A stretch of DNA of 64,000 nt, taken from positions 512,001 through 576,000 of the forward strand of contig CAVXTP010000022.1 in assembly GCA_963764715.1 (NCBI GenBank). Direction: 5' to 3'. The stretch's first letter is position 1. Each line of letters begins with the position of its first letter. The notes beneath the pieces were generated by a model. The model made no database searches. It was given only the letters and a program-made list of their open reading frames with translations, and had not been told where the DNA came from. A program made the position numbers and the translations under genes. This DNA is from an uncultured Acidobacteriota bacterium. GTDB taxonomy: Bacteria > Acidobacteriota > Thermoanaerobaculia > UBA5066 > Gp7-AA6. Of the stretch, positions 21,368-49,487 are shown one piece after another.

Positions 21368-21375
21368 TCCGCGGC

Positions 21376-24897: not shown

Positions 24898-25122
24898 ATG
24901 AGCAGGCCCCCCAAGCCGACCGCCCCCCCCGCCGCACGGGAATTCCTTTCGACGGGCGAAGTCGCGCGCCTCTTCGGCGTCTCGCCGTCGGCCGTGACCC
25001 GCTGGGCGCGCACCGGGGTCCTCAAGGCCGTCCGCACGCCCGGGGGGCACTACCGATTCCGCGCGAGCACGCTGCGCCGGGCCGCGATCGAGATCCCCGA
25101 CGAGCCGCAGCGCCTGGACTGA
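24898..25122 (+). CDS. Small MerR-like/BldC-like helix-turn-helix protein
   Basis: FLSTGEVARLFGVSPSAVTRWARTGVLKAVRTPGGHYRF is a typical HTH_17/BldC pattern. Confidence 0.85.
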   Translation: MSRPPKPTAPPAAREFLSTGEVARLFGVSPSAVTRWARTGVLKAVRTPGGHYRFRASTLRRAAIEIPDEPQRLD

Positions 25123-25126
25123 CGCC

Positions 25127-27052: not shown

Positions 27053-27063
27053 AGGAGCCGAAG

Positions 27064-27570: not shown

Positions 27571-27580
27571 AGGAGACCGC

Positions 27581-28963: not shown

Positions 28964-28964
28964 C

Positions 28965-30191
28965 ATGGAACAGAGAACCGATTCCCCCTATCCGAAGAAG
29001 GACCGGCCGATCCTCGCGATCGTCGGCGTGCTGCTCGTCGTCTCGACGGTCCTCTTCGCGTGGAGCGACCGCAAGCACGACTGGCGCTACTACCAGTACG
29101 CCTTCCGCGCCCAGGTGACCGAGAAGCTCGGGGCGGAGAAGGCCGCGACCATCCCGAAGGGCGTCCAACAGATCTGGGTCTCCGAGATGCGCCGCGCCGA
29201 CCGCTGCATCACCTGTCACCAGGCGATGCTCTGGAAGGGCTTCGAGAAGGCCGAGAACCCCTACAAGTCGCACCCCGTCGAGCCCCTCAAGGGGCATCCA
29301 ATCGAGAAGTACGGCTGCACCGCCTGCCACGGCGGCCAGGGCTGGGCCATCGACGACGTCGCCGCGCACGGCCCGGTCGAGCACTGGGAGGAGCCCCTCC
29401 TGGGGTCGCAGCTCGGCGAGGCCTACACGCTCTCGGCCCAGAAGTCGGCGCTCATGCAGATGAACTGCAACGTGTGCCACCGCTTCGACCGCGAGACGAA
29501 GGGGGCCGACGAGATCAACCTGGCGAAGAAGCTCGTCCTCGAGAAGGGCTGCCGCGCCTGCCACGTGATCAACGGCCGCGGCGGAACGATCGGCCCCGAC
29601 CTCACGTGGGTCGGCGACAAGGCACCCGAGCAGTACGAGTACGGGCGGCTCTCGGGCCAGAAGAGCGCCTACGCCTGGCACGTCGCCCACTTCAAGGACC
29701 CCCGGGCCCTCGTGCCGGAGACGGTCATGCCGAACTTCCACTTCACCACCCGCGACGCCCAGGCGCTGGCGATGCTGGCGCTCTCGTGGCGGCGCGCGCC
29801 GATTCCGGCCGACTACCGGCCGGGGCTCCCCCGCACCGACCCCCAGACCCCGGAGGAGATCGCCGAAGAGCAGCGGATGAAGACCGGCCCCGGCGCCTGG
29901 TTCGTCAAGACGGGCTGCTTCGTCTGCCACTCCATCCAGTCGCTCGGGGTCAAGAGCCCGGCCCAGATCGGGCCCGATCTCTCGACGGCGGTCGAGGACA
30001 CGCAGGCGCGCTTCGGCCGCACGGTCGACGACTTCCTCCGCGAGCCGACGGGAACGATGGCCGTCGTGCTGTCGCGCCAGATCGTGCTGACGCCGCAGGA
30101 GAAGGAGATCGCCGTCCAGAAGCTGCGGGAGGCGTTCGCCGAGCACCAGAAACAGAAGGCCGAGGGAAAACCCGAAGCCGGCGGCCATTGA
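28965..30191 (+). CDS. Membrane-anchored pentaheme cytochrome c
   Basis: N-terminal TM helix; five CxxCH motifs (CITCH, CTACH, CNVCH, CRACH, CFVCH). Confidence 0.92.
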   Translation: MEQRTDSPYPKKDRPILAIVGVLLVVSTVLFAWSDRKHDWRYYQYAFRAQVTEKLGAEKAATIPKGVQQIWVSEMRRADRCITCHQAMLWKGFEKAENPYKSHPVEPLKGHPIEKYGCTACHGGQGWAIDDVAAHGPVEHWEEPLLGSQLGEAYTLSAQKSALMQMNCNVCHRFDRETKGADEINLAKKLVLEKGCRACHVINGRGGTIGPDLTWVGDKAPEQYEYGRLSGQKSAYAWHVAHFKDPRALVPETVMPNFHFTTRDAQALAMLALSWRRAPIPADYRPGLPRTDPQTPEEIAEEQRMKTGPGAWFVKTGCFVCHSIQSLGVKSPAQIGPDLSTAVEDTQARFGRTVDDFLREPTGTMAVVLSRQIVLTPQEKEIAVQKLREAFAEHQKQKAEGKPEAGGH

Positions 30192-30222
30192 AACGGTAAC
30201 CCGAGAGGGAAGGAGAACGACG

Positions 30223-32106: not shown

Positions 32107-32119
32107 CCCGTCCCGAGAA

Positions 32120-32152
32120 CCGGGCGGCGGAACTCCTCCCCCCGCCGCCCGG
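32120..32152 (+). terminator. 11-bp GC hairpin after nosZ (partial terminator or mRNA stabiliser)
   Basis: CCGGGCGGCGG-N11-CCGCCGCCCGG with no U-tract. Confidence 0.6.
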
Positions 32153-32170
32153 AACTCACAGGAGATCCCC

Positions 32171-32821
32171 ATGAAGGCCATCCTCGAACGGAGCAACCGG
32201 GCGCTCGAACTGCCGCTGGACCTGCTCCCGCGACTGCTGCTTCTGGTGGCCGCGCTGCTTCTCGTCCCGACTTACCTGATGCCGCTCTGGAAGCTGACGA
32301 TGTTCGCGCCGCAGTACCCGGACGGCCTGCGCCTGAACATCCACAGCTACAAACTCGAGGGCGGCAACGCCGGCCAGGACGTCAAGGAAATCAACATCCT
32401 CAATCACTACATCGGGATGAGGGACCTGACGACGGCCGACTTCACCGAATTCAAGTGGATGCCGTTCGTCATCGGCATGCTGGGACTCCTCTTCCTTCGC
32501 GCCCTCTTTCACGGGAGAATCGGTGATCTGATCGACGTCGTCGTGCTGTACCTGTACTTCGGCCTCTTCTCGCTGTGGTCCTTTGGCTACAAGCTCTACT
32601 CGTACGGCCACAACCTCGCGCCGACCGCGTCGGTGAAGGTCCCGCCCTTCATGCCTCCGCTCTTCGGGTACAAGAAGCTCGCCAACTTCGAGGTCTACTC
32701 GTACCCCGCCGCCGCGTCTTACGCCCTCGCCGCCGTCGGCGTGGTCCTTCTCGCCGCCCTCGTGCTGGCCCGGCGCGAGGCCCGCCTCGAGGAGCACGAG
32801 GACGCCCGGACGGCCGGATGA
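32171..32821 (+). CDS. nosB: NosB membrane protein
   Basis: PLW...APQYPDGL...INILNHYIGM...EF.WMP...YGHNL; directly after clade II nosZ. Confidence 0.88.
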   Translation: MKAILERSNRALELPLDLLPRLLLLVAALLLVPTYLMPLWKLTMFAPQYPDGLRLNIHSYKLEGGNAGQDVKEINILNHYIGMRDLTTADFTEFKWMPFVIGMLGLLFLRALFHGRIGDLIDVVVLYLYFGLFSLWSFGYKLYSYGHNLAPTASVKVPPFMPPLFGYKKLANFEVYSYPAAASYALAAVGVVLLAALVLARREARLEEHEDARTAG

Positions 32822-34173
32822 TCCTGCCCGCCGTCGCCCTCCTCCTCGCCCTGTCCGCAGAGGAAATGACTTCCGCGACGGCGGCCTCCGTCGAGGGACG
32901 TCCCGCCGCCGGCGCCGTCTCGCCCCTCCAGGGGCGTGTCGACGCGGCCCCCGCGGGGTCCGTCCTCGAGATCGGGCCCGGCACCTACCGCGGCGACCTC
33001 TACATCGATCGTTCCATCACGCTCTCGGGACGCGGCCGCCCGAGGCTTCTGGGCTCGGGCACGGGAAGCGTCGTCCGCATCCGCGCCGCCGGCGTCGTCG
33101 TCCAGGGGTTCGACGTCGACGGGGGCGGAGGCGGGGATCTCGGGCGGGACGCCTCGGGAATCCACGTCGCGGCGAAGAACGTCACCGTGCGCGACTGCCG
33201 AATCACCAACGCCCTCTTCGGCGTGTACCTGCGCGAGGCCGACGGGTCGGCCGTCGAGCGCACCTCGATCCGGGGGATCCCGGGCAAGGACCCGGGCGAG
33301 AAAGGCTCCGGTATCCACGTCTGGAACACGAACGGCTTCCGCCTCGTCGGCAACACGATCGTCGACGTCCGCGACGGCTTCTACATCCAGTCCTCCGCGC
33401 ACGGCGTCATCCGCGGCAACACGGCGCGGGACCTGCGCTACGGGCTGCATTACATGTTCACGGACGACAACCTCTTCGAGGACAACACGTTCGAGAACGG
33501 CGCCGCCGGCACGGCGATCATGTACTCGAAGCGCATCGTCTTCCGGCGCAACCGCTTCCTGCACAACCGGGGGTTCGCGTCCGTGGGACTGCTGTTCAAG
33601 GCCTGCGAGGACGTCACGGCCGAGTCGAACCTCATCGCCGACAACGCGCGGGGGATCTTTCTCGAGGGGTCCTATCGCAATCTCTTCAAGGACAACGTCA
33701 TCGCCGAGTCCGACGTCGCGATCGTCCTCTACGACTCGTGCGCCGACAACCGCTTCGTCGGGAATCTCTTCCTCGGCAACATGACGCCGCTGACGCTCGT
33801 GGGCCGCCGGACCGACACCCGGTTCGACGGCAACTACTGGTCGGGCAACGGCGAGCCCGACCTCGACGGCGACGGCCGTAGCGACCGGCCCTATCGCCTC
33901 TCCTCGGTCTTCGACCACTTCCGCGGGAACCTGACGGCGGCCGACCTCTTCACGTCGAGCCTCGCCGCGTCCGCCCTCTCGGCCGCCGAGCGGGCGTTCC
34001 CCGTCCTCGAGCCCGTGACGGTGGAAGACCGGTCGCCGCTCGCCCGGCCGCCCGTCCTGCCATCCGTCCCGCGCCCGCCCCTTGCCCCTCGCGGCCGCAA
34101 CGCCGGCGCCCTCGCCGCCTGCGCCGCCGCCGTCGTTCTCGGGAGCGTCGCCGTCTGGGAAGGCCGCCGATGA
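32818..34173 (+). CDS. nosD: N2O reductase maturation protein NosD
   Basis: Beta-helix repeats, GSGIHVWN, RDG, RYGLHYMF, GNYWS and DLDGDG motifs. Confidence 0.93.
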   Translation: MILPAVALLLALSAEEMTSATAASVEGRPAAGAVSPLQGRVDAAPAGSVLEIGPGTYRGDLYIDRSITLSGRGRPRLLGSGTGSVVRIRAAGVVVQGFDVDGGGGGDLGRDASGIHVAAKNVTVRDCRITNALFGVYLREADGSAVERTSIRGIPGKDPGEKGSGIHVWNTNGFRLVGNTIVDVRDGFYIQSSAHGVIRGNTARDLRYGLHYMFTDDNLFEDNTFENGAAGTAIMYSKRIVFRRNRFLHNRGFASVGLLFKACEDVTAESNLIADNARGIFLEGSYRNLFKDNVIAESDVAIVLYDSCADNRFVGNLFLGNMTPLTLVGRRTDTRFDGNYWSGNGEPDLDGDGRSDRPYRLSSVFDHFRGNLTAADLFTSSLAASALSAAERAFPVLEPVTVEDRSPLARPPVLPSVPRPPLAPRGRNAGALAACAAAVVLGSVAVWEGRR

Positions 34174-35069
34174 TCCGGTTCAAGGACTTCTCGAAGACGT
34201 TCGGCGGGAATCGCGCCGTGGACGGAGTGACGTTCTCGGTCGAGCGCGGCGAGGCCGTCGCGCTCCTCGGGCCCAACGGCTCGGGCAAGACGACCACGCT
34301 GAAGGCCGCCGCCGGCCTCATCCGGCCGACGTCCGGCGAGGTTCGCGTGGGCGAGCCGCCCCGCTCGCCGCAGGAGCCCGAGGCGCGAAACGCCATCTCG
34401 TACCTCCCCCAGAAGGTCACGTTTCCGGAAGCCGTCACGGGCCGCGAGATCGTCGACTTCTATCGCCGGCTCCGCAACGTCGATCCCGTCCGGGTCGACG
34501 AGGTCTTCCACTTCGCCTCGTTGAACGGCGCCTCCGCGCGTCCGGTCGGCACTTACTCGGGCGGCATGCTGCAGCGCCTGGGTCTCGCGATCGCGGTCCT
34601 TCCCCAGGCGCCGATCCTGCTGCTCGACGAGCCGACCGCGGCCCTCGATCCCGACGGCCTCTGCGCGTTCTACGGCCTCGTCGAGCGGCGCCGCCGGGAA
34701 GGGCACACGCTGCTCTTCACGTCGCACCAGCTCGGCGACGTCGAGCGGCTCGCCGACCGTTTCGTGCTCCTCGTGGAGGGCCGCCTCGCGGCGTCGCTGA
34801 CCCAGCGCGAGCTCGCGGACCGCCTGTCGCAGCGCGGCGTCCTGCGCCTGCGCCTCGAGCGCCGCGTCCCGGGCCTCGTCGAGCAGCTCCGCGCATTTTC
34901 ACCGGCCGCCGTCTGGGCGGCGGGCGAGCTCGTCATCGCCGGCCCCGCGGCCGACCGTCCCCGGATCCTCGACGTCGTGCGCGCGGCGGGCGGGCAGATC
35001 GTCGGCCTCGCGGCCGAGGAGGGCCGGCTCGACCTTCTCTATCGCGAGCTCGTGCGAGGCGAGGCGTGA
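34170..35069 (+). CDS. nosF: ABC ATPase NosF
   Basis: GPNGSGKTT, YSGGMLQR and LLLDEPT motifs; nos context. Confidence 0.9.
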   Translation: MIRFKDFSKTFGGNRAVDGVTFSVERGEAVALLGPNGSGKTTTLKAAAGLIRPTSGEVRVGEPPRSPQEPEARNAISYLPQKVTFPEAVTGREIVDFYRRLRNVDPVRVDEVFHFASLNGASARPVGTYSGGMLQRLGLAIAVLPQAPILLLDEPTAALDPDGLCAFYGLVERRRREGHTLLFTSHQLGDVERLADRFVLLVEGRLAASLTQRELADRLSQRGVLRLRLERRVPGLVEQLRAFSPAAVWAAGELVIAGPAADRPRILDVVRAAGGQIVGLAAEEGRLDLLYRELVRGEA

Positions 35070-35527
35070 GAGCCCGAGGGCTCCTCGCCGCCCTCGCCAT
35101 GGTCCCGATGATCGCCTGTGCCGGCGGCGACCCGGCGCCGGCCGCCCTCGACACCCGCCACGAAACCTGCCGCTCGTGCCGGATGCCGGTTTCGGACCCG
35201 CATCTGGCGGCCCAGCTCACGGCCCCCGGCGAGGAACCGGCCTTCTTCGACGACATCGGCTGCCTGCGCGACTACGTTCGCGAGCACACGCCCGAGGCGG
35301 GGGCCGTCGCCTGGGTCGCCGATCACCGGACCGCCGGCTGGGTTCGAGCGGCCGCCGCGACGTATGCGCTCTGTCCGACGATCGAGACGCCGATGGGGTC
35401 GCACCTGATCGCCTGGGCCGACGCACCCTCGCGGCAGTCGGACTCCGCGGTGAAGAACTGTGCCTCGCGGTCCGCACCGGAAATCTTCGGAGCGAGCCCT
35501 CCCGACGGCCACAAGAGAGGCGGTTGA
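35066..35527 (+). CDS. nosL: Copper chaperone lipoprotein NosL
   Basis: Lipobox-like MIAC; CRSCRM, FDDIGC and TPMGS motifs. Confidence 0.9.
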   Translation: MRARGLLAALAMVPMIACAGGDPAPAALDTRHETCRSCRMPVSDPHLAAQLTAPGEEPAFFDDIGCLRDYVREHTPEAGAVAWVADHRTAGWVRAAAATYALCPTIETPMGSHLIAWADAPSRQSDSAVKNCASRSAPEIFGASPPDGHKRGG

Positions 35528-35529
35528 GA

Positions 35530-35979
35530 ATGGAAACCAAGATCCCCCAGTCGATCCAGATGGAGCACGAGGAGCTCCACGAGCAGCTTGCCCGCGCGAT
35601 CAAGGCGGGCGGGAAGACGGGCGAAGCGGCCCGCGCCGTCATGAAGGTGCTCCAGCCGCACATGGCGCGGGAAGAGGAGATCGTCGCGCCCTGTCTCGCC
35701 CTGCTCCGGCCGGCCGCCGAGGGCACGCTGACCGCGGAGATGGCCGAGGCCCTGTCGCGTGTCGCGCCCCTGAAGGCCGAGATGCCGCGCATGCTGGAGG
35801 AGCACGGTCGGATCGTGGACGCGCTGCGCGAGCTCATCCGGGTGGCCACCGAGGAGAACCAGCCCGGGTTCGCGAAGCTCGCCCAGATGCTCGTGGCCCA
35901 CGCCCAGGAAGAAGAGGAGATCCTCTACCCCGCCGCCATTCTGCTGGCGGAGGTTCTCAAGGCGAGGTTCGGCGCATGA
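35530..35979 (+). CDS. Hemerythrin-like (HHE) domain protein
   Basis: EHEELH, HMAREEE, EEHGRI and HAQEEEEILYP motifs. Confidence 0.82.
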   Translation: METKIPQSIQMEHEELHEQLARAIKAGGKTGEAARAVMKVLQPHMAREEEIVAPCLALLRPAAEGTLTAEMAEALSRVAPLKAEMPRMLEEHGRIVDALRELIRVATEENQPGFAKLAQMLVAHAQEEEEILYPAAILLAEVLKARFGA

Positions 35980-36821
35980 CCGCTCCCGACGCGAGGTCGG
36001 TCGTCCTTCTCTGCGCGCACCAGGAGCTGGTCCTCGCGGTCCGGTCGCGCTGGACCCAGATCTTCGCGGCCGTCTTCGCCGCGCTGTCGCTGGCGGTGGC
36101 CGCGTCCGGCTACGTGCTGTCGGGCGGCGCCGGATTGCAGGACTTCGCGAGGACCGCGGCCTCGCTCGTCCAGCTCGTTCTCCTCCTGACTCCCCTGACC
36201 TCGCTCGTGATCGGCGTCCTCGCGCTCGCCCCCGAGCGCGGCGCCGCGGAAATGCTCTTCTCGCAGCCGGTCTCGCGGCGCGCGATCCTGCTCGGCCGCC
36301 TCCTCGGCCTCTTCGCCGCCCTCGCCGCGGCGCAGGCGATCGGCCTCGGGGGAGCCGGCCTTCTCGTCTTCTCCCGCGCCGGAGGCACCGGGGCGGCCGG
36401 CTACGGCATCCTGTTCCTCGGCGCCCTCGTGCTGACCGCCGTCTTCCTCGGAATCGCCGCGCTGCTCGTCTCCGGAGGGGTCGGCCGACGCGCGAAGTCC
36501 CTCGCCGTCGCCCTGATCGTCTGGTTCGGCGCCGTCGTCCTCTTCGACGTCGCGGCCCTCGGTGTCGCGTCCCTGCTCGGCTCGACCGCCGCTTCGCGGC
36601 TTCTCATCGCGGCCGTGCTGGTCAATCCCATCGACGCTTTCCGCACGGGCGCCCTCCTCGCAATCCAGGGCACGACGGCGTTCGGCGGCGCGTCCCTCGC
36701 CCTCCTGCGATTCACGCGGGGCCCCGGCGGAGCCGCGGCGCTGCTCGGGCTGTCCGCGGTCCTCTGGCTCGTGCTGCCGGCGGCCTTCGCCGCCCGACGG
36801 CTCGAACGCGCCGACCTCTGA
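35976..36821 (+). CDS. nosY: ABC permease NosY
   Basis: Multi-TM protein with E.LFSQPVSR and NPIDAFR; nos context. Confidence 0.88.
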   Translation: MTAPDARSVVLLCAHQELVLAVRSRWTQIFAAVFAALSLAVAASGYVLSGGAGLQDFARTAASLVQLVLLLTPLTSLVIGVLALAPERGAAEMLFSQPVSRRAILLGRLLGLFAALAAAQAIGLGGAGLLVFSRAGGTGAAGYGILFLGALVLTAVFLGIAALLVSGGVGRRAKSLAVALIVWFGAVVLFDVAALGVASLLGSTAASRLLIAAVLVNPIDAFRTGALLAIQGTTAFGGASLALLRFTRGPGGAAALLGLSAVLWLVLPAAFAARRLERADL

Positions 36822-40479: not shown

Positions 40480-40947
40480 TCAGCCCGCGTCGGTCCCGAG
40501 GCGGCGTTCCAGGACGAACCGGGGCGCCGGCGCAAATCCCTGGGTGCCGAGGAAGCGGCCGAGCTCGTGCTCGTCCCAGGCGACCTCCGTGCGCAGCCGC
40601 TCGATCCCGAGCGCCCGGAGATTGCGCGTGAGGTCCTCGACGAGGGCCGTCCCGACGCCGCGCCGCGCGTAGCCCGGGTCCACGAGGATCGTGTCGAGAA
40701 TGGCGATCGGTTCGGGCTGCCCGAACTCTCCGTAGTGCAGAGACCCGAGCACGGCGCCGACGAGGAAGCCCTCCATCTCGCAGCCCAGCGAGATCCGGAC
40801 GTCGGATTCCGCGAGCGCCCGCCGGAGCTTCCCTTCGTACCAGGCCGTGCGGTTTCGCCCGGTGAGCGCGTGGTCCATGCGGACCAGCCGCGGCAGGTCT
40901 TCGAGCGTGAGCGTGCGGACCTTCAGATCGTCGCGTTCGCCGTCCAT
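40480..40947 (-). CDS. GNAT acetyltransferase, BadL-like
   Basis: YGEFG, LDTILVDPGYARRGVG and GFAPAPR motifs; last gene of the bcr operon (C-terminal end of the 1196-aa track ORF). Confidence 0.8.
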   Translation of the reverse strand: MDGERDDLKVRTLTLEDLPRLVRMDHALTGRNRTAWYEGKLRRALAESDVRISLGCEMEGFLVGAVLGSLHYGEFGQPEPIAILDTILVDPGYARRGVGTALVEDLTRNLRALGIERLRTEVAWDEHELGRFLGTQGFAPAPRFVLERRLGTDAG

Positions 40948-41778
40948 GCGGCCCCCTCCATGCCGACCCTCTGCCGGCGGAATGCTCCCCAGATCGCGGC
41001 CCCGATCGCCCCGGCGTACGCCGACAGCGGGTCGCGCGCCAGCTCGAGCGGCGCCGCTCCCCGGGCCGCTCCCTGCGCGAGCGCGGCCGACAGCGCCACC
41101 GCGAGCCCGTCGTCGGCGGCGAGGCCCCCGCTCAGGAAGACGGTCCCCTCGACGCCGAGGGAATGGAGCAGCCGCGCGAAGCGTCCGGCCATGCTGTCGT
41201 GGATCCCCCGCAGGATGTTGGCGGCGCCGAGGCCCCGCGAAACCATGTTGATCACGTCCGTCTCGGCGAGCACGGCGCAGATCGAGCTGACGGCCTCGGG
41301 CTTCTCCGCGGTCTGCGACAGGGCCCCGATGTCGGCCTGGGCGACACCCAGGTAGCGGGCGATGTTCTCGAGGAACTGGCCGGACCCCGAGGCGCACTGA
41401 CTCGTCATCTTGTAGCCGAGCACCTTGCCCCGCGAGTCCATCGCCACGGCCCGCGCGTGGAGGGCGCCGATGTCGAGAACGGCCCTCGCCCACGGCGCCA
41501 GAAAGAGCGCCCCGCGCGCGTGCGTCGTCATTCCGTAGAAGTGGCCCGTGGCGATCGGGCGTCTCCTCCCCTTCGCCTGTCGACGCGACGTAGTCGAGCT
41601 CGCGGACGCCCGCGGCCTCGACCGCCGCGTCGAAGGCCTCGGCGACGACCTCGGCGACGTTGCGGCGGCGGACGCGCGCCACCGCGTGGCCGAGCACCCG
41701 GTCCTCGCCCTCCCCGACCCGCAGGATCGCCGCCTTGACGGCGCTCGAGCCGACGTCGATCCCGGCCGTGACGCTCAT
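40923..41778 (-). pseudogene. bcrD: Benzoyl-CoA reductase subunit D (ATPase), +1 frameshift as sequenced (possibly artefact)
   Basis: AGIDVGSSAVK...STGEGE in one frame; GHFYGMTTHARGA...DIGALH...MTSQCASGSGQFLENIARYL in the next. Extra G at 41557-41559. Confidence 0.85.
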
Positions 41779-43059
41779 GCCGCCGCTCCCCGAAGCGCGA
41801 AGTGCGCCGCCCCCAGCGCTCCCGTGTAGATGCTGTCGGCCGAGATGTTGATCCGGCGCTCGCCGTAGTTCTCGGCAATCAATCCCGTCAGCGCCTGCAC
41901 CGCCGCGGGGTTGCGCGCCACGCCGCCGGTGAAGGTGAACTCGTTCTCGACGCCGCCCGACCGCGCCAGCAGGCTCAACGCCCGCAGGATCACGGCGCGG
42001 TGGAGCCCGGCCAGGATGTCCTCGCGCTTCTCGCCGAGCGAGAGCCGCTCCCGCAGCTCGGCCCCCGCGAAGACCGTGCAGGTCGAGCTGATCCGGACCG
42101 GCCGCCGGCTCTCGAGGGCCAGGGGCCCGAGCTCGTGGAGGCCCATGTTCATCTCGTCGGCGATGTACCCGAGGTAGCGCCCGCAGCCGGCGGCGCAGCG
42201 GTCGTTCATCTGGAAGCTCGTCACGATCCCGGCCCCGTCGACCTGGATCGCCTTGGTGTCCTGCCCGCCGATGTCGAGGACGGTCCGCGTGGCCGGGAAG
42301 AGCACGTGGGCGCCGAGTCCGTGGCAGAGGATCTCGGACCGGATCTGCTCCTTCGGGAACGGGAGCCGCGCGCGGCCGTATCCCGTGCCGACCGTCGCCG
42401 CGACCGCGATTTCCGCCGTCACCGCCGCCTCGACGGCAGCCCGCACCCCCGGCGTCTCGCCGACGCGCTCGACGGCCTGGCCGATGTGCTCCCGGAAGCC
42501 GAGCTCGAGCGGCTCGTTCTCGACGAGGACGATGCACTTGTCGTAGAGCCCGACCAGCGCGTCGAAGGTGACGCCCGAGCCGCCCTCCCGCGCGGCCTCC
42601 TCCGAGAGCCGGGCGTAAGCCGAGCCGGCCGCGTCGCGGAAGAAGTCCGAGCGCTCGGAGGGATTCGCTTCGGCGAAGCGGGCCTCCTCCTCGGGCGCGG
42701 AGGCGCTCGAAGATGCGGACGACGGCGGCCCGGAGTCGCCTCGCGCCGGCCGGCGGGATGCCCTTCTCGATCTCCTCCCCGATCTTCGCCTCGAGCGACG
42801 AGAGCTGCACGAGCATCTGTTCGAGACGGAACGCTCGCAGGAGGCGGTTGAGCGTCCCGAGCCCGGCCGCCTGCTCGACTTCCCGCTGCAGGAGCCGGAA
42901 GCGCGCGCTGACGAAGGCCTCGGTGCGGGCGAGCTCCGCCGCGAGGTCGTAGTTGGAGCGGGAGTTGGTGATCCCGCGACCGAGCACCTCGCCCCGCTCG
43001 TCCAGGACGACGGCCTTCGTCGTCGTCGAGCCGAGGTCGATCCCGACGAACGCTTTCAC
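41775..43059 (-). pseudogene. bcrA: Benzoyl-CoA reductase subunit A (ATPase), +1 frameshift as sequenced (possibly artefact)
   Basis: [13 protein letters not shown]...[10 protein letters not shown], then shift at 42693-42695, then SDFFRD...GTGYGR...SEILCHG...DIGGQDTK...[13 protein letters not shown]. Confidence 0.85.
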
Positions 43060-44342
43060 GCGCCGACGCCCGCGGCCGCGCCCGCCCGGCGGGCGTCGAG
43101 CATCTGGAAGTAGCTCTCCATGCGGTTCTTGAGGTTGGCGGCCGAGAAGTACCGGGGGTCCACGAGGTCCGACTCGATGAACGCCCCGGGCAGGCCCGTG
43201 CGGCGCTCGACCTCGCGCAGCATCATGAGCTGGCCGGCCGAGAAGGAGTTGCAGGACTTGACCGAGTGGATCAGGAACCCGTCCGCGGCGTACTCCTCGG
43301 CGTACTGCGCGATCATGTCGACGCGCGACGGGAGGTTCCGGTTGGTGTAGCAGCCGCTGCAGTAGTCCGCGAGCGTGCCGAGAGGATCGGAGGGGTCGTG
43401 GCGGAAGCCGAGGTCGTACGTTCCGCCGACCTTCGAGTAGGTGGACGCCACGACGACGGCGCCCTCGTCGGCGAAGAGCTTCCAGAACTCGCGGAAATGG
43501 GTCCAGTTGGGCGGGCCCTCGACGACAAGCCGGTGCTTCTGGCGGTCGAGCCGGCCGGACGGCGTCGTCGGGCCTTCCCCGCGCGCCGCGCGCTCCTCGA
43601 CCTCCTGCCGGAGCGCCCGGTAGTACGCGCCCCCTTCCTCGGTCCCGCGGAAGGCCGAGAAGATGGGCCCGACGTAGTAGACGGCGCCGAAGTAGGCATC
43701 GATCGGGCTCGGCGTCTTCTTGGCGGACTCCAGGACCGCCACCAGGTCGTCCTCCGCGGCCGCGCTCCGGGTGAGGTTCTCGCGCAGCCGGTCCTCGTCG
43801 TATCGGCGGCCGGTGGCCTTCTCGAGGGCCGGCACGAGGGTTTCGCGGATCTGGCGCTCGACGTACGTCCGCATCGCCGGCGATTGCGTCCCGTCGCCCT
43901 GGTACGGGATCTGGAGGAACACCGTCGGGCACTGGTACGCCTCGCGCAGCAGCTCGAACCACTTCATGAACGTGTAGCAGCCGGTGTAGGAGAGAAGCAG
44001 CAGGTCCGGCTTCGGCAGCCGCGTCCCCGTCGGGCTGACGTTGCCGGCTTTCAGCATCCCGACGTCGCACTTCACGTACGAGCAGACGTCCTCGGAGTGG
44101 CCGGCCTTCTCGGCGGCGGCGATGTAGCCCCCGCTCTTGCCGCGCATGGCCGACTGGAGAGCGTTGATCTCGGGCAGCACCGGCAGCGCGTCGAAGGAGC
44201 GGATGAGCTCCGTGAGGTTACCCGGCACGAAGGTGTAGACGACCGGCTCGCCGGTCTCGGGCGCCGCCTCGAGACGGCGATAGTGCTCCGCCAGCATCTC
44301 CTTCTGGAGGAGCATCGAGCGGTCTTTTTCGGTCTCGGACAT
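43056..44342 (-). CDS. bcrB: Benzoyl-CoA reductase subunit B
   Basis: QKEM, FVPGNL, LPEINALQ, GHSEDVCSYVK, YTGC, EGPPNW, KSCNSFSAGQL and ESDLVDPRYFS motifs. Confidence 0.93.
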   Translation of the reverse strand: MSETEKDRSMLLQKEMLAEHYRRLEAAPETGEPVVYTFVPGNLTELIRSFDALPVLPEINALQSAMRGKSGGYIAAAEKAGHSEDVCSYVKCDVGMLKAGNVSPTGTRLPKPDLLLLSYTGCYTFMKWFELLREAYQCPTVFLQIPYQGDGTQSPAMRTYVERQIRETLVPALEKATGRRYDEDRLRENLTRSAAAEDDLVAVLESAKKTPSPIDAYFGAVYYVGPIFSAFRGTEEGGAYYRALRQEVEERAARGEGPTTPSGRLDRQKHRLVVEGPPNWTHFREFWKLFADEGAVVVASTYSKVGGTYDLGFRHDPSDPLGTLADYCSGCYTNRNLPSRVDMIAQYAEEYAADGFLIHSVKSCNSFSAGQLMMLREVERRTGLPGAFIESDLVDPRYFSAANLKNRMESYFQMLDARRAGAAAGVGA

Positions 44343-44473
44343 CTATTGTTCTCCCGGCAGGGTGCTGCCTGAGGCGACATGGCGTGCGACCGGCCGACCG
44401 GCTCCTGGCCCTCTGGTTTCGCAGTGCCGTTGCCGACCTGCCGAAGCGTTGACGCCGCCTCTATCGAAAAGCA

Positions 44474-45641
44474 CTAGGCGCCTCCCCAGAGCTTGATCGC
44501 GTCGGCGAACGTGCCGGCCTGCTCGCGAAACTGCTGGAACTGGCCGGTGTTCTCGGCGAACTGGAACGCGATGCACGGGATGCCCGCGGCTCTCGGCTCC
44601 CGCTCGCAGCATCGGCCGGTCGAGCAGCGCCGGGTCGCAGAAGCTCGCCGACGCGAAGATGACGCCGTCGGCCCTCGCCGCCGCCACGCGCTCGGCGAGG
44701 AGGCGCCGCTTTCCGTCCGGATCCGGCTCGTAGAGCGTGGAGTTGCGGACCGAGTGCCGCACGAAGGCCTCCGCGAGGTTGTGGAGCGGATCGCCCTCGA
44801 GCGGGACATCCCCGTCGATCATCCGGTTGCCGAGAAGGAAATCGTCGTCGACGATGAAGCAGCCCGCGCGCTCGATCGTCTTGACGAGCCCGAGCGGAGG
44901 CTGCTCGCAGAAGGCGCCCACGACGACGACCCGCGCCCGGTCGCGCACGCGGCCCGGCTCCGCCTCGACCGCGGCGAGGTACGCGCGCACGCGCTCGAGG
45001 AAGTCCTCGAGCGGCACGAGCTCCCCCGCGCGCATCAGGAGGTACAGCTCCTCGGTCGGCACGCTCCAGGGGGCGTCCCGGCGCGCCTGGTAGAGACGCC
45101 GGATGAGCGCGCGGGCGGTGTTGTACGCCCCGATCGCCTCGCGGAGGGACTCCTCGGTCGCCGGGGCGCCTCCCACCCGTCCGAGATCGCGCCGCAGCAC
45201 CTCGAGCTCGTCCCGCCAGAAGGCCGTCTGGATCGACGACTCCCCTCCCTGCGGCAGGTCGAGGTAGCGGACGTACAGGTCGGGATAGAGCAGCTTCCAT
45301 ACCCCCGACAGGTTGCGGATGACGTCGCAGGTCGCCGGGAAGAGGACCGCCGAGAGGAAGTCGAGCCGTCCCGACTGCGCGAGCTCGACGACCGAGCGGG
45401 GCAGGTGGCAGATGTAGGACTGGTAGAAGGCGTCCCCGCGGATGATCTCGAGGCGGTCACCGCCCCCGTGGATGCCGACCGGGAGAAGGCCCGAGGCCCG
45501 CAGGACCTCCCGGGGCGCGTAGACCGGAAGATATCCCGCCGCCTTCCGGCCGGGCCGCTCCGCGATCCAGGCGCGCGCCGCCGAGAACTCCAGGTCCTCG
45601 CAGACGTCTTCGGCCCAGTCGACGATCTCGGCTCGTTTCAC
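44474..45641 (-). pseudogene. bcrC: Benzoyl-CoA reductase subunit C, +1 frameshift near the C-terminus as sequenced (possibly artefact)
   Basis: GDAFYQSYICHLPRS, CDVIRNLSG, FCEQPP, SFCDPALL; after the shift at about 44583-44591, GIPCIAFQFAENTGQFQQFREQAGTFADAIKLW. Confidence 0.85.
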
Positions 45642-46423
45642 GTGTGGGACCAGACCGGAGGCCGGCGCTCGAGAAAGGCGGTCAGGCCCTCGACGGGGTC
45701 GCGGTGGGACATGAGGTCGTTCAGGTACTGGGCCTCGAGGACGGGCAGGTCGTCGTCGAGCGACGCGGCGAGGAGCCTCCGCGACGCGCGCCAGGCCGCG
45801 CGCACGGCCACGGCCGACTTGTCGGCGAGGCGCTCTCCGTACCAGCGCTGCAGGGCCGCCTCCGCGTCGTGGTTGCAGCCGTCGATCAGTCCCCAGGCGG
45901 CCGCGCCCTGCGCGTCGAAGGTGTCGCCCGAGACGATCAGCTGCGTGGCTCTCGCCCCGGTCACGCGCCACGGCAGGACGATCGCGGCGACCGGGGGAAA
46001 GACGCCCAGGCGCGTCTCCGGGACGCCGAAGCGCGCCGACGCCTCGCCGAAGACCATCCCGCACCAGAGCGCGAGCTCGAAGGCGCCGCCGAGGCACTGG
46101 CCGCGCACCACCGCCGCCGTGGGCGTCCCGAGCGCCTCGAGGTCGCGGAACAGGCCGTGAAACGCGGGCAGCAGCTCGCCGACCCGGTCCGGCATGTGCT
46201 CCTGGACCGACGCTCCGAAGCTGAAGTGATCGCCCGCGCCCTCGAACACCAGGAGCTTGAGAGGACCGGGGTTCTTCGCGAGCTCGACCAGGCGCGCGCG
46301 GATCGCGCCGATCATCTCCCGGTCGAGGACGTTCGCCTTCGGCCGGTCGAGAACGATCCGCTGGATCTCCCCGCCGCGCTCCGCTCCGCAGCGGATCGGG
46401 GACGTCGCAACCGTTTCCGTCAT
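45638..46423 (-). CDS. dch: Cyclohexa-1,5-dienecarbonyl-CoA hydratase
   Basis: RPKANVLD, HFSFGASVQEH, GQCLGG and PE..LGVFPP motifs; bcr context. Confidence 0.88.
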   Translation of the reverse strand: MTETVATSPIRCGAERGGEIQRIVLDRPKANVLDREMIGAIRARLVELAKNPGPLKLLVFEGAGDHFSFGASVQEHMPDRVGELLPAFHGLFRDLEALGTPTAAVVRGQCLGGAFELALWCGMVFGEASARFGVPETRLGVFPPVAAIVLPWRVTGARATQLIVSGDTFDAQGAAAWGLIDGCNHDAEAALQRWYGERLADKSAVAVRAAWRASRRLLAASLDDDLPVLEAQYLNDLMSHRDPVEGLTAFLERRPPVWSHT

Positions 46424-47529
46424 GAAACCTCCTCGGCGTCGGGTACGAGGACGACGCGGCGTTCGACCCGATGCGCCCGAACGTCCTCGAGGACCTCGGC
46501 GATCCTCGAGAGCGGCCGCAGCTCGGCGTGCGAAGCGACCTCGATCCGTCCCGCGAGCACCTTTTCCAGGATCTCGGGATAGAGCCCGGGCGCGCAGCCC
46601 CAGTTCCCCAGCGCCCGCGCGTCGAAGGCCATGAGGTTCGAGAGCCGCACCGCGACGGTCTCGAGCGTGAAGCCGACGACCATGAGCGTCGCGCCGTGGA
46701 CGAGGAGGCCGAAGGCCGTCTGCTGGCCCGCGGGCGTGCCCGAGCATTCGAGGATCGTCCAGCCCGTCGCCGGCGCGCCCTTCTCGCGGGCGAAGGCAGC
46801 GAGCCGGCCCCGGAGCTCCTTCGCCGGCAATTCGCGGGGGTCGAGCGCGAGGCCCACGCCGATCTTCGAAGCCGCGTCCCTCCGGCGAGCGTCGACGTCG
46901 AGGCCGACCACCGCCGCGCCCCGCTCGGCCGCGACCTCCGCGGCGAAGGTCCCGACGCCGCCCAGCCCGACGACGACGGCGAGCTCCCCGAAGCGAACGC
47001 CGGACCGCTCGACCGCCTGGTAGGCCGTCGAGACCGCGTCGGCCACGACGGCGAGGTGCCGGAGCGTCAGTCCCGGCGCGTCACCCAGCGGAGCATCCGG
47101 ATCCTGCCCCGCGCCCGGCACCGGGCACAGGAAGCGTCCCGGCAGCACGACGCGGTCGGCGAAGCCCCCATCCCGGTCGTTGCCCGGCATGATCTGGGAC
47201 GCGCAGATGGTCGATCGTCCCGCGCGGCAGAGCGCGCACTCGCCGCAGGGCAGCACCGCCGGAACGACGACCGCGCGGCCGACGAGCTCCCGCTGGCGGC
47301 TTCCCGCGTCCTCGACGTAACCGCTGATCTCGTGGCCCAGGATCAGCGGCAGCGGATGGCGCGTGCGCACGCCGTCGTTCAGGAAGCCGAGGTCCGTGTG
47401 GCAGACGCCGCACCCGGCGACCCGGATCAGGACGTCTTCCGCGTCCAGCGTCCCGACCTCGCGGCGAGCGGGAGCGAGGGCTCCCGCCGTCCCGGCGAAC
47501 TCGTACCCCCGGATCGTCGTCACGCTCAC
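46420..47529 (-). CDS. had: 6-hydroxycyclohex-1-ene-1-carbonyl-CoA dehydrogenase (Zn-ADH)
   Basis: GCGVCHTDLG, LGHEISG, PAVLPCGECALC, MPGND.DGGFA and RLSNLMAFDA...GNWGC motifs. Confidence 0.92.
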   Translation of the reverse strand: MSVTTIRGYEFAGTAGALAPARREVGTLDAEDVLIRVAGCGVCHTDLGFLNDGVRTRHPLPLILGHEISGYVEDAGSRQRELVGRAVVVPAVLPCGECALCRAGRSTICASQIMPGNDRDGGFADRVVLPGRFLCPVPGAGQDPDAPLGDAPGLTLRHLAVVADAVSTAYQAVERSGVRFGELAVVVGLGGVGTFAAEVAAERGAAVVGLDVDARRRDAASKIGVGLALDPRELPAKELRGRLAAFAREKGAPATGWTILECSGTPAGQQTAFGLLVHGATLMVVGFTLETVAVRLSNLMAFDARALGNWGCAPGLYPEILEKVLAGRIEVASHAELRPLSRIAEVLEDVRAHRVERRVVLVPDAEEVS

Positions 47530-48272
47530 GCCCCCAGCGCCTGTCCGCCGTCGACGGCGAGGGCCTGGCCCGTGATGTGCGCGGCGCCGGGCCCGGCGAG
47601 AAACGCGACGGCCTCCGCGATCTCCTCCGGCCGCGCCGCGCGGCCGAGCAGCGTCTCGGCGAGGGCCTTGCGGCGGACCTCGTCGGAGAGCGCCGCGGTC
47701 ATCGGCGTGTCGGTGAAGCCCGGCTCCACCACGTTGACCGTGACGCCGCTCGCGGCGAGCTCCCGGGCCGCCGAGCGCGCGAGGCCCAGGAGGCCGGCCT
47801 TGGCTGCGGCGTAATTGGCCTGGCCGAATTTGCCGCGCCGCCCGTTGATCGAGGAGATGATGACGACGCGACCCGACGGGCTCCGGCGGAGCGCCGACGC
47901 CGCGGCGCGCAGGTAGTTCGCCGCGCCCGAGAGATCCACCGCGATGACCCGATCCCACGCCTCGTCGCTCATCTTCCAGAGGACGCCGTCACGGCAGATC
48001 CCGGCGGCGAGCACCAGGAGGTCCAGCGCCTTGCGACGCTCGAGGACGTCGCCGACCGTCCGGCGCGCGGCCTCCGCGTCCGCCACGTCCGCCGCGTAGA
48101 GGTTTGCCTTGCCGAACGCGCGGGCGAGACCGCCGAGGCGCCGCGCATCGGCGTCGACGATCGCGACGGCGGCTCCCGCGGCCTTCAGCCGCCGGGCGCA
48201 GGCGAGACCGATGCCGCTCGCGCCGCCGGTCACGAGCGCGACCCGACCGGCGAGCTCGCGACGGGGGCTCAC
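47526..48272 (-). CDS. SDR oxidoreductase (FabG/PhaB-like)
   Basis: TGGASGIG, RDGVLWKM and GKFGQANYAAAK motifs; translationally coupled between oah and had. Confidence 0.85.
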   Translation of the reverse strand: MSPRRELAGRVALVTGGASGIGLACARRLKAAGAAVAIVDADARRLGGLARAFGKANLYAADVADAEAARRTVGDVLERRKALDLLVLAAGICRDGVLWKMSDEAWDRVIAVDLSGAANYLRAAASALRRSPSGRVVIISSINGRRGKFGQANYAAAKAGLLGLARSAARELAASGVTVNVVEPGFTDTPMTAALSDEVRRKALAETLLGRAARPEEIAEAVAFLAGPGAAHITGQALAVDGGQALGA

Positions 48273-49318
48273 TCGAGCTTGCCTCCGCACGCACCGCAGT
48301 GGGCGAAGGTCGCCGGCAGCCCTTCCGCGCCGCAGCTCCGGCAGGCCCGCACGTGCGCTCCCCACGGCGTCTCGGGGGACCCGCCCGGCTCGACGGCGCG
48401 GCGCCGGACTGCGGCGAAGTCGACCGGCCGCTTGTGGGCGAACGCGCTCATGCCCTCGAAGGGCTCGTAGTCGGTGTAATGGAGGGCCAGCCAGTCCTGC
48501 GCGTGGCGCACCGTGAGAGCCCAGGAGAAGTCCTTCCAGAAGTTGACCTGCTGCTTGGTGTAGCGAACGCACTCGGGAAACGTCCGGAGGAGCTCCGCCG
48601 CCAGGCGGCCGACTTCCTCGTCGAGGGGCGCGAGGTCGATCGAGTACCCGTCCGCTCGCTTCTGCGCCTTTTCGATCTCCTCGGGCGAGGCGATGGCCAC
48701 GAGCTCCCCGCCCCGGCGCACCGACGGCGCGACCCGGTTGACGAGCCCCCATTCGAGCGCCAGGCGCGCGGGAATCGGGCGGTTGGTGAAGAGCATCTCG
48801 CGGGCGCGCTTGTCGCCGACCGTGATCGGCAGCCACTGCGTGGCGCCGCCGCAGGCGACCGATCCGACGCGGACGCCGACCTGGCCGACGTAGGCGTGCT
48901 CGGCGATCACCGCGAGGTCGCAGGCGAGGACCGTCTCGTTTCCGCCGCCGACCGCCACCCCGTTGATCCGCGCAATCACGGGCTTCCCGGTCGAGAGGAT
49001 CGCGTCGATGTAGGCGCGGAAGAGCGCCATGTACTTCCAGTAGTCCCGGGGCGCCCCGATGTAGGTCTCGGCGTACTCCTTGACGTCGCCGCCCGTGCAG
49101 AAGGCGCGGTCCCCCGCGCCCGTCAGGACGATGACGCCGACCGCGTCGTCGAAGGTGGCCTCGCGCAGCCCCGCTGCGAGCTCCTCGAGGCAGGAGGTCG
49201 AGTAGGCGTTGTACCGGCCGGGACGGTTGATGGTGATCCGGGCGACACCGTCCTTCTTCTCGTAGAGGATCTCCTTGAAGGACAGGGAGGAGACCTCGCG
49301 AGGCGGGAAGGCGCGCAT
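48269..49318 (-). CDS. oah: 6-oxocyclohex-1-ene-1-carbonyl-CoA hydrolase (Oah/BamA)
   Basis: YNAYST, AFCTGGDVKEYAE.Y, GGATQWLP and FPEC.RYTK motifs; C-terminal CxxC...CxxC. Confidence 0.88.
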   Translation of the reverse strand: MRAFPPREVSSLSFKEILYEKKDGVARITINRPGRYNAYSTSCLEELAAGLREATFDDAVGVIVLTGAGDRAFCTGGDVKEYAETYIGAPRDYWKYMALFRAYIDAILSTGKPVIARINGVAVGGGNETVLACDLAVIAEHAYVGQVGVRVGSVACGGATQWLPITVGDKRAREMLFTNRPIPARLALEWGLVNRVAPSVRRGGELVAIASPEEIEKAQKRADGYSIDLAPLDEEVGRLAAELLRTFPECVRYTKQQVNFWKDFSWALTVRHAQDWLALHYTDYEPFEGMSAFAHKRPVDFAAVRRRAVEPGGSPETPWGAHVRACRSCGAEGLPATFAHCGACGGKLE

Positions 49319-49354
49319 CAGTCTGCAGTCTCGTACGGGGTCCGGCGGGTGCGC

Positions 49355-49368
49355 ATGATCTGCGTCAT
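49355..49368. promoter_or_regulatory. Crp/Fnr-type box ATGATCTGCGTCAT (benzoyl-CoA operon promoter)
   Basis: Centred 43.5 nt upstream of the oah ATG; GAGACT -10-like element at 49327-49332 (minus strand). Confidence 0.72.
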
Positions 49369-49487
49369 GGCACAAAGGATCCACTCGAGCGCCCACCCAC
49401 CGAATGATTGGTTTGCATCAGATCGGGAGATTCCTGATCCCGGGCAAGCGCCGGTGTCGGCCCCTCGGCCGGGGGCCCGGAGGTGCT

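Follow-up and report, generated by a model that had tools for sequence, protein, structure and literature searches.

A nine-gene operon for a Bcr-type benzoyl-CoA pathway, probably functional, near the nitrous oxide reductase genes of an uncultured acidobacterium

Introduction

Does an uncultured soil acidobacterium with genes for the reduction of nitrous oxide (N2O) also carry a working operon for the reduction of aromatic rings, and do the two belong together? The question is raised by a stretch of 64,000 nucleotides (nt) of contig CAVXTP010000022.1 in assembly GCA_963764715.1, which is here called the window and whose positions are used throughout. On its minus strand, between 40480 and 49318, nine genes encode an Oah-like hydrolase, a short-chain dehydrogenase/reductase (SDR), Had, Dch, the four reductase subunits BcrC, BcrB, BcrA and BcrD, and a GCN5-related N-acetyltransferase (GNAT), and a clade II nos cluster lies close by. 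A first-pass annotation, made from the DNA letters of the window, had proposed that a non-proteobacterial organism couples anaerobic aromatic catabolism to N2O reduction.

The analysis presented here indicates that these genes are a conserved Bcr-type benzoyl-CoA pathway operon of a non-denitrifying, N2O-reducing acidobacterium, and that the operon is probably functional, as judged from the sequences. In the explanation that we consider likely, the genes form one operon of an acidobacterium resembling the Thermoanaerobaculia; this operon would encode an ATP- and ferredoxin-dependent class I reductase of the Bcr/Bad type together with the ring-processing steps, its frameshifts would be errors, and its anaerobic induction would be shared with nos.

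Results

Gene order and protein families of the operon

The window has a G+C content of about 71%, and its raw lists of open reading frames (ORFs) are crowded with shadow frames. The coding strand and frames were set with a frame plot of G+C at third codon positions (GC3) and a codon-usage frame hidden Markov model, and by both the minus strand is coding over the whole length of 40480–49318. The genes run from the ATG of the Oah-like gene at 49318 to the GNAT stop at 40480–40482, exactly as in the first-pass annotation, which also had their content and order right. Seven of the eight gene junctions overlap: six are 4-nt GTGA/ATGA start/stop overlaps, and in the seventh the last 25 nt of bcrD are shared with the GNAT gene, whose ATG is at 40947. 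The sole gap in the operon follows the bcrC stop, where a 131-nt spacer precedes the start of bcrB. The ATG of dch, which overlaps the had stop, is preceded by a GAGGAGG Shine-Dalgarno motif. In the order of transcription, the Pfam domains are ECH_1 (Oah-like), adh_short, ADH_N with ADH_zinc_N, ECH_1, two HGD-D, two BcrAD_BadFG and Acetyltransf_1; the coordinates are collected in Table 1.

The proteins were assigned to families with Pfam and NCBIfam profiles, and the NCBIfam scores were compared with the curated equivalog cut-offs (in bits). Two HGD-D subunits (B and C) and two BcrAD_BadFG subunits (A and D) are contiguous in the order C-B-A-D. BcrB scores 669.5 on TIGR02260 (cut-off 486.6) and 74 on the bzd-type model TIGR03191. 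BcrC scores 424.5 on TIGR02263 (profile positions 2–353; cut-off 421.2), with a further 33.9 (349–380) in its frameshifted tail. BcrD exceeds the cut-off of TIGR02261 (312.9) only as the sum, 325.6, of two pieces with 45.2 (2–91) and 280.4 (71–262). The bzd-type models give 72–139 bits on the Bcr subunits, far under the bcr-type ones, and Had reaches 420.5 on TIGR03201 (cut-off 338.65). By their NCBIfam families, the subunits are a predicted class I benzoyl-CoA reductase of the Thauera/Rhodopseudomonas (Bcr/Bad) type.

The SDR and the GNAT also have homologues in other bcr loci. The SDR, which scores 230 on TIGR01830 and 219 on TIGR01829, each below its cut-off, has homologues with 52–57% identity inside alphaproteobacterial and planctomycete bcr loci, and would be a 3-hydroxyacyl-CoA (3-hydroxypimeloyl-CoA) dehydrogenase. 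The GNAT is 44–45% identical to the GNATs of the Rhodovulum and Magnetospirillum bcr loci, and in 40 of the 80 related loci described below, other phyla included, the gene directly 3' of bcrD is a GNAT in the same orientation. It is probably a BadL-like regulatory acetyltransferase, by analogy with the system of Rhodopseudomonas palustris (PMC6191541).

In the pathway that we propose, BcrCBAD would reduce benzoyl-CoA, or a close analogue, to a cyclic dienoyl-CoA, which Dch would hydrate; Had would oxidise the 6-hydroxy group, and the divergent Oah-like hydrolase would open the ring to 3-hydroxypimeloyl-CoA. The SDR would probably oxidise this product for beta-oxidation, while the GNAT would probably act in regulation, in the manner of BadL. 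We expect the electrons to come from a ferredoxin, which one of the genome's 2-oxoacid:ferredoxin oxidoreductases (OFORs) would reduce.

Conservation among Acidobacteriota

The assembly that holds the window (working label G000) comprises 4.36 Mb in 26 contigs and is 96.8% complete. It was compared with the best 80 BcrB loci from public genomes (labels L) and with the genomes of relatives (labels G). The sets of relatives used for the placement of BcrB and NosZ and for the flavo-FeS gene discussed below include G030, which has no relevant match and supports no claim. The single BcrB of G000 is 98% identical to that of G023. Ranked by BcrB, metagenome-assembled genomes (MAGs) labelled "uncultured Acidobacteriota" and MAGs of Thermoanaerobaculia come first (82–98% identity), followed by Gemmatimonadota, Krumholzibacteriota, Myxococcota and Planctomycetota (70–79%), while the alphaproteobacterial sequences of Rhodovulum, Rhodomicrobium and Magnetospirillum are 62–67% identical. 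The records of the nearest relatives carry names of the form "MFD...bin...contig_...", which we take to be those of a long-read metagenome series.

A quick maximum-likelihood tree of BcrB (77 rows; L087, with an internal stop, and the short L088, L096 and L114 were omitted) places the window in a clade of 27 rows, 26 of them labelled Acidobacteriota, with a Shimodaira-Hasegawa-like approximate likelihood ratio (SH-aLRT) support of 100, and a long branch divides this clade from the alphaproteobacterial sequences. Ranking and tree thus bear out the non-proteobacterial host. The nine-gene order, with an Oah-like protein of at least 75% identity, is found in 20 of the 80 loci, and five further acidobacterial loci that are incomplete (L038, L047, L101, L102 and L079) keep the same order over the part present, so that the arrangement is conserved over about 25 acidobacterial loci. 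Among 201 sampled genomes of the class, 34 have a BcrB at E ≤ 1e-60, 31 of them over the cut-off.

Points against a functional operon

Several observations weigh against a functional benzoyl-CoA operon. In the deposited sequence the reading frame is broken in bcrC, bcrA and bcrD, and the 131-nt spacer is absent from all six aligned relatives and skipped by the contigs of two metagenome runs, being unique to this assembly. Among public sequencing runs, none contains more than 17% of the sampled words, and there is no RNA run among them. Three proteins fall below their equivalog cut-offs: the split BcrA, with 107 (profile 2–127) and 444.8 (129–432), sums to 552 on TIGR02259 against a cut-off of 578; Dch has its best match in TIGR03189 with 207 against 292.5, about 100 bits above other crotonases; and the Oah-like protein has its best match in TIGR03200 with 200.4 against 464.45, where BadI gives 172 and MenB 169. 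Among the Pfam-annotated genes, no Rrf2/BadM-like regulator adjoins the GNAT or occurs elsewhere in the window. In the G000 assembly, no small Thauera-type 2[4Fe-4S] ferredoxin is found by motif scans, and no gene passes the benzoate-CoA ligase model TIGR02262 (cut-off 375). By its context, the Dch-like protein would nevertheless act as Dch.

The frameshifts and the spacer

The bcr frame changes noticed in the first-pass annotation are truly in the deposited sequence, near 44590 in bcrC, near 42692 in bcrA and at 41557 in bcrD. Were they also in the cell, the operon would be a recently inactivated pseudogene cluster, and the organism would not reduce aromatic rings. It fits this view that the three net +1 shifts, within 3.1 kb, are the only frameshift-like sites in the window, that an insertion seen nowhere else lies between bcrC and bcrB, that source reads of the sites are not among the public runs, and that bcr is patchy in the genus (BcrB in 6 of its 24 other genomes), which implies that loss does happen.

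The extra bases at the three sites are missing from all eight aligned relatives. Compared with L038 and L039, bcrA differs by three indels (−1, +1, +1) within 75 nt, two of which form a compensating −1/+1 pair 14 nt apart, a pattern typical of a noisy consensus. Four soil and biofilm runs yielded Logan contigs that are 88–99% identical to the window and represent sequences of relatives rather than source reads. These contigs are without the extra bases where they cover the sites: the base at 41557 is missing in one contig per run in all four runs, that at 44591/44592 in five contigs from three runs, and that at 42692 in one contig from one run.

The reductase genes also bear the mark of purifying selection. 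The ratio of nonsynonymous to synonymous substitution rates (dN/dS) against L039 and L038, the two closest intact loci, is 0.03–0.18 in every segment tested on both sides of the breaks, the short bcrC tail being excluded from these results. Downstream of the breaks it is 0.07 for the C-terminal part of BcrA and 0.04–0.06 for that of BcrD, and bcr holds neither stop codons nor deletions nor signs of relaxed selection, which argues against inactivation.

Moreover, breaks of this kind are found throughout the assembly. Of 1765 same-strand frame transitions in the genome, 311 are frameshift-like, and they are clustered regionally and distributed very unevenly between contigs. Among 16 such sites taken at random, six are clear splits of a single domain with consecutive profile coordinates (in AcrB, PfkB, ribosomal protein S5, Pyr_redox_2, DAHP synthase and GAPDH), about four are two genes, and the others are undecided; one copy of CtaD is likewise split. 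Examples of break sites in G000 are C6:46454, C14:244181, C2:66052 and C24:51089. Among 14 relative loci scanned, the bcr genes are in a single frame in 11, and sister MAGs have different breaks of their own, in bcrA in L037 and L040 and at many sites in L088. In the closest relative, L037 (G023:C9), the bcrA frameshift, at about 8623, affects another base of the same 100-nt stretch as that of the window.

Because dN/dS is low, breaks occur genome-wide, single domains are split elsewhere and sister assemblies are broken at other points of the same genes, the three frameshifts are most likely consensus errors of the assembly, with the genes probably intact in the cell. We judge the odds to lie heavily on the side of error, and regard a genuine inactivation as improbable. 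As for the spacer, it has no second copy in G000 that would make it a repeat, and it does not appear to be a structured RNA either, with a fold z of −0.67 against shuffles and no Rfam match. On account of these probable errors, annotation pipelines would label bcrC, bcrA and bcrD of this MAG as pseudogenes, so that the pathway would be undercounted, and gene calls from the G000 assembly will in general come out fragmented.

The substrate of the reductase

The reductase, the divergent Dch and the Oah-like protein might act on a substituted or other aryl-CoA (for example hydroxy-, methyl- or amino-benzoyl-CoA) rather than on benzoyl-CoA. Both Dch and the Oah-like protein are well under their equivalog cut-offs and are distant from the alphaproteobacterial enzymes, with 39–41% identity for Dch and 32–37%, over nearly the full length, for the Oah-like protein, whose nearest solved relative is MenB (4ELS). 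A genome search identified the Oah-like gene as the best and only candidate of its kind in G000. Its C-terminus (48269–48345) carries a CxxC-(13 residues)-CxxC tail, which may be a Zn-ribbon; of 20 acidobacterial orthologues, 19 have this tail, whereas the canonical Oah of Alphaproteobacteria and Planctomycetota lacks it. A different substrate would also agree with the lack of a detectable benzoate-CoA ligase in G000, with the long branch between the BcrB clade and its alphaproteobacterial counterpart, and with the nearest solved relatives of the reductase, which are subunits of 3-methylbenzoyl-CoA reductase: MbdO (9G87) for BcrB, with 220 bits over residues 23–424, and MbdQ (9GAI) for the C-terminal part of BcrA, with 203 bits.

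In contrast, BcrB, BcrC and Had, and BcrD as summed pieces, reach the equivalog cut-offs of the benzoyl-CoA pathway, and the 669 bits of BcrB on the Bcr model far exceed its 220 bits against MbdO. A dedicated other substrate is unlikely on this balance, and benzoyl-CoA or a close analogue remains the preferred reading. Characterised class I benzoyl-CoA reductases accept several substituted analogues, and the distinction may be one of degree.

Shared promoter boxes and the link to nos

The nos cluster ends with nosY at 36815, 3.7 kb from the GNAT stop, and its NosZ is of the Sec type (clade II), with 910.1 bits on TIGR04246 (cut-off 625) against 440 on the TAT-type TIGR04244; NosD scores 385 on TIGR04247. 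Both the closeness and the clade are as first annotated. The strict FNR consensus TTGAT-N4-ATCAA has no match in the window at up to one mismatch. The shorter TGAT-N4-ATCA, with the same tolerance, has 14 matches against 4.6 expected (about threefold), a number that none of 100 shuffles reaches; four promoter-like gaps contain six of these matches (Table 1). Two of these Crp/Fnr-like boxes are found in the nos promoter and two in the oah promoter, in keeping with the shared regulatory box of the first-pass annotation. Of 20 relative loci, six also have a box upstream of oah; in four of these (L040, L043, L059 and L088) the fetched locus contains no nos gene, and the box therefore appears to belong to the bcr promoter as such. 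The window also encodes a regulator of the Crp/Fnr family that is devoid of the N-terminal cysteine cluster of FNR and is a candidate reader of the shared boxes. It follows a gene for a ScdA_N/DUF1858/NnrS-like membrane protein (19634–22044 for the two). The simplest reading of boxes at both bcr and nos would be common anaerobic induction.

The neighbourhood of the two gene sets is found in other assemblies. BcrB and NosZ are 11 kb apart in G000, G023 and G013, 14 kb in G064, 23 kb in G145, 27 kb in G072 and 379 kb in G217, and are on different contigs in G016, G018, G209, G150, G181, G026 and G032; the close pairs span three genera of one family. A chimeric contig, which would have undone the proposed link, can be dismissed: the nos-bcr arrangement recurs in G023, G013, L038 and L047 and, more loosely, in G064, G072 and G145, and the G+C content is uniform across contigs (0.675–0.719). 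In the 200 other genomes of the class, BcrB and NosZ occur together in 11, BcrB only in 22, NosZ only in 16 and neither in 151, which corresponds to an odds ratio of 4.7 (Fisher p 0.001), a value that is overstated since the relatives are not independent.

On the other side, the adjacency is not general, with nosY in the flank of only 3 of the 80 BcrB loci, and the 22 genomes with BcrB and without NosZ, the separate contigs of G016 and the 379 kb of G217 likewise speak against a fixed link. The closeness of nos and bcr could reflect shared ancestry, or a common "anaerobic island" in which both are induced by anoxia, with no specific coupling to N2O respiration, and to this we give an even chance. 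The spacing varies (11, 14, 23, 27 and, in G217, 379 kb) with different intervening genes, NosZ is lacking in 22 of the 33 other genomes with BcrB and BcrB in 16 of the 27 others with NosZ, and the box upstream of oah is kept in relatives without nos in the locus. Crp-like activation of bad genes by anoxia is, moreover, known, according to the available text of PMC6191541. Against this stand the 11 observed co-occurrences in the 200 genomes where 4.5 are expected, the conservation of the neighbourhood in three genera of the family, and the N2O reductase being the only anaerobic respiratory reductase found in G000.

Neighbourhood, co-occurrence and shared box make a coupling of aromatic oxidation to N2O reduction plausible. 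We also put forward, tentatively and as a rather doubtful extension, that N2O respiration and ATP-dependent ring reduction might form one co-regulated anaerobic module in this family of Thermoanaerobaculia, with the boxes read by a cysteine-less NnrR/DNR-like regulator whose gene adjoins the NnrS-like one; its non-denitrifying members in soil would oxidise lignin-derived aromatics with N2O as the sole anaerobic acceptor, by means of a reductase clade with a GNAT and a Zn-ribbon-tailed hydrolase and without a dedicated ferredoxin gene.

Table 1 Positions of the operon, its promoter, the predicted boxes and the nos genes in the window
Feature	Position	Strand	Assignment and remarks
Oah-like ring-opening hydrolase, 349 residues	48269..49318	-	crotonase, MenB/BadI/Oah group; ECH_1 159.7 bits
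SDR, FabG/acetoacetyl-CoA-reductase-like	47526..48272	-	adh_short_C2 186 bits; GTG start overlaps Oah stop
Had, 6-hydroxycyclohex-1-ene-1-carbonyl-CoA dehydrogenase, Zn-ADH family	46420..47529	-	TIGR03201; ADH_N, ADH_zinc_N
Dch-like cyclohexa-1,5-diene-1-carbonyl-CoA hydratase	45638..46423	-	TIGR03189 best match, below cut-off
bcrC, net +1 frameshift near 44590	44474..45641	-	TIGR02263 in two frames
bcrC-bcrB spacer, 131 nt	44345..44475	-	found in this assembly alone
bcrB, intact, 428 residues	43056..44342	-	TIGR02260; sole genome copy
bcrA, net +1 frameshift near 42692	41775..43059	-	TIGR02259 in two frames
bcrD, +1 frameshift at 41557 (extra G)	40923..41778	-	TIGR02261 in two frames
GNAT acetyltransferase, 155 residues	40480..40947	-	Acetyltransf_1
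Operon promoter region	49319..49487	-	two Crp/Fnr-like boxes, 49356-49367 and 49409-49420
Box, promoter of nnrS-like gene	19544		TGAT-N4-ATCA scan
Boxes, nos promoter	24768 (perfect), 24843		TGAT-N4-ATCA scan
Box, gap between hemerythrin gene and gene of 556-residue protein	38673		TGAT-N4-ATCA scan
Boxes, oah promoter	49356, 49409		TGAT-N4-ATCA scan
Crp/Fnr-family regulator without N-terminal (FNR-type) cysteine cluster	21367..22044	+	cNMP_binding, HTH_Crp_2
Clade II nos cluster: MerR-HTH, flavo-FeS, Rieske, cytochrome b, cytochrome c, NosZ, membrane protein, NosD, NosF, NosL, hemerythrin, NosY	24941..36815	+	Pfam

Neighbouring genes

Directly 5' of nosZ (24943–30161) are genes for a MerR-HTH protein, a GltD-like flavo-FeS protein with a 2[4Fe-4S] tail, a Rieske protein, a cytochrome b (ExtP/ExtQ-like) and a cytochrome c. 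It had been speculated in the first-pass annotation that the flavo-FeS protein supplies low-potential electrons to the reductase, and this suggestion did not hold. In all five relatives with NosZ and without BcrB (G027, G031, G035, G037 and G040), an orthologue with 75–81% identity is found about 5 kb 5' of nosZ, and the gene keeps its place in all eight other genomes with a close orthologue on the NosZ contig. Since it stays by nosZ in relatives without BcrB, the flavo-FeS gene belongs to nos and not to bcr, and together with the Rieske and cytochrome genes it may form an electron-input module for clade II NosZ.

Between nos and bcr, genes for a hemerythrin/DUF2249 protein, a rhodanese and a MauE/DoxX membrane protein are found at 36829–38592. 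In L045 (10980–12756) the same three directly follow the GNAT gene on the same strand, and partial sets adjoin bcr in L042, L047, L079, L101, L108 and L111; the three may be part of the bcr operon and not of nos. The plus strand at 38784–40451 encodes a 556-residue protein without a Pfam or NCBIfam match, whose homologues lie beside bcr in 8 of the 80 loci and which has, as a lead only, DUF2339-like acidobacterial clusters in the protein atlas.

Farther away, a minus-strand beta-oxidation set at 1–5826 comprises genes for an acyl-CoA dehydrogenase, a FadB-like hydratase/dehydrogenase, a thiolase and a FadD11-like ligase. It could serve the breakdown of pimeloyl-CoA, though it is generic. The Rfam matches in the window are two tRNA genes only, at 13958–14031 (minus strand) and 50944–51017 (plus strand).

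Respiration, electron supply and ligase in the rest of the genome

No ligase for benzoate, ferredoxin, kor, nar, nir or nor gene is found among the Pfam-annotated genes of the 64-kb window, as first reported. A search of the rest of the genome, in which the absence of a gene means absence from an incomplete and error-prone assembly, extended this picture for nar, nir and nor, supplied OFORs of the kor type, and yielded neither a ligase over the cut-off nor a dedicated ferredoxin. No credible gene for narG, napA, nirS or nirK is present in G000: the matches resembling NapA or NarG are formate dehydrogenases or a broken molybdoenzyme. The two heme-copper oxidases, considered as NO reductases, are both aa3-type CtaD with CoxB, and G000 thus has two aa3 oxidases.

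G000 has at least three OFORs. Two of them consist of alpha and beta subunits, with 580 and 567 bits for the alpha subunits (cut-off 483). A third, of the VorB type, has a delta part that resembles ferredoxin, and a 1261-residue ORF resembles pyruvate:ferredoxin oxidoreductase. At C23:70738–75852, the alpha and beta genes of an OFOR, at 74074–75852, are followed by NfnA-like and NfnB/GltA-like genes, and this operon is a candidate source of reduced ferredoxin. The sole stand-alone ferredoxin candidate is a four-cluster polyferredoxin of 144 residues, encoded identically at C3:1954–2493 and C20:5280–5819, which may represent a duplicated or doubly assembled region; the C20 copy adjoins genes for a Rieske protein and a cytochrome b (ExtP-like).

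The top match to the benzoate-CoA ligase model (226.8 bits, on C5) is an acetyl-CoA synthetase by TIGR02188 (986 bits), and the AMP-binding gene of the window, also considered as a benzoate ligase, is FadD11-like. The second match (223 bits) is a PRK08162-like acyl-CoA synthetase on C10 near Mo-hydroxylase genes. At C10:273115–277425, a Mo-hydroxylase of the xanthine dehydrogenase family, whose gamma and alpha subunits weakly resemble 4-hydroxybenzoyl-CoA reductase at scores far below the cut-offs, is followed by this synthetase (PRK08162-like, 597 against 677), and the locus is a candidate for the activation of aromatic acids. BoxB has only a weak match (159 against 499 bits), which is probably PaaA-like.

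Discussion

A working operon would add abundant Acidobacteriota of soils to the organisms that degrade lignin-type aromatics without oxygen, and in this lineage aromatic catabolism could be paid for by N2O consumption, which would link carbon turnover to a greenhouse-gas sink. The Oah-like gene, with about 33% identity to canonical Oah/BamA, would be unlikely to be caught by marker assays based on BamA.

Among the closest known systems is that of Thauera aromatica, BcrCBAD with Dch, Had and Oah. It shares with the window the C-B-A-D order of four subunits from two protein families, a cluster that also includes Had, Dch and an Oah homologue, and bcr-type NCBIfam equivalogs; close sequence relatives of the Bcr described here are found in Magnetospirillum, Rhodovulum and Rhodomicrobium. 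The order oah-SDR-had-dch-bcrCBAD-GNAT differs from the had-oah-dch-bcrCBAD of L091, L095 and L103, which we take to be the Thauera gene order. Unlike in Thauera, the cluster neither contains nor adjoins a gene for ferredoxin or korAB, both Dch and Oah have diverged, the latter with a Cys-rich tail, and the host has no detected nitrate, nitrite or NO reductase.

In Rhodopseudomonas palustris, the Crp-like AadR activates badDEFGAB, and BadL, a GNAT, controls the operon via BadM (PMC6191541). A GNAT of the BadL type is one that is paired with an Rrf2 regulator (BadM) and acetylates aminobenzoates. The same reductase families, an associated GNAT and a Crp/Fnr-type promoter site are found in the window. 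In contrast to R. palustris, translational coupling joins the GNAT to bcrD here, the operon has no neighbouring gene for an Rrf2 regulator, a BadA ligase or a BadB ferredoxin, and the lower pathway is of the Dch/Had type rather than that of BadK, BadH and BadI. The 3-methylbenzoyl-CoA reductase MbdONQP (9G87, 9GAI, 9GAL and 9GBA) is the closest solved structure by sequence, although the match is far weaker than that to the Bcr/Bad models.

Both halves of the locus have precedents, since class I benzoyl-CoA reductases in Acidobacteriota and NosZII in Thermoanaerobaculia are each already known. Class I reductase genes are described in Acidobacteriota MAGs from mangrove sediment (PMC11704145), and for peat, aromatic degradation genes (bcrABCD) are mentioned alongside Acidobacteriota MAG transcripts (bioRxiv 10.64898/2026.05.27.727921), while benzoyl-CoA degradation genes are known from Gemmatimonadota MAGs (PMC10581226). 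Like the present work, these reports place bcrABCD in non-proteobacteria and discuss it with anaerobic respiration; their available sections do not describe how the operon is built, the accompanying GNAT and SDR, the nearby nos genes or the shared box. Sec-type NosZII of Thermoanaerobaculia, mainly from paddy soils, and a tested Vicinamibacteria strain without nirK and nirS are reported in the accessible text of PMC13122619, which does not link nos to aromatic catabolism and in which the word "aromatic" is absent. Our literature search found no paper with both "Thermoanaerobaculia" and "bcrABCD", and for non-denitrifying N2O reducers "benzoyl-CoA" was absent among the matches listed. From these known systems, the operon described here differs modestly, in having no ferredoxin gene in the cluster, a divergent and Cys-tailed Oah, an SDR as a member of the operon, and a GNAT coupled to bcrD.

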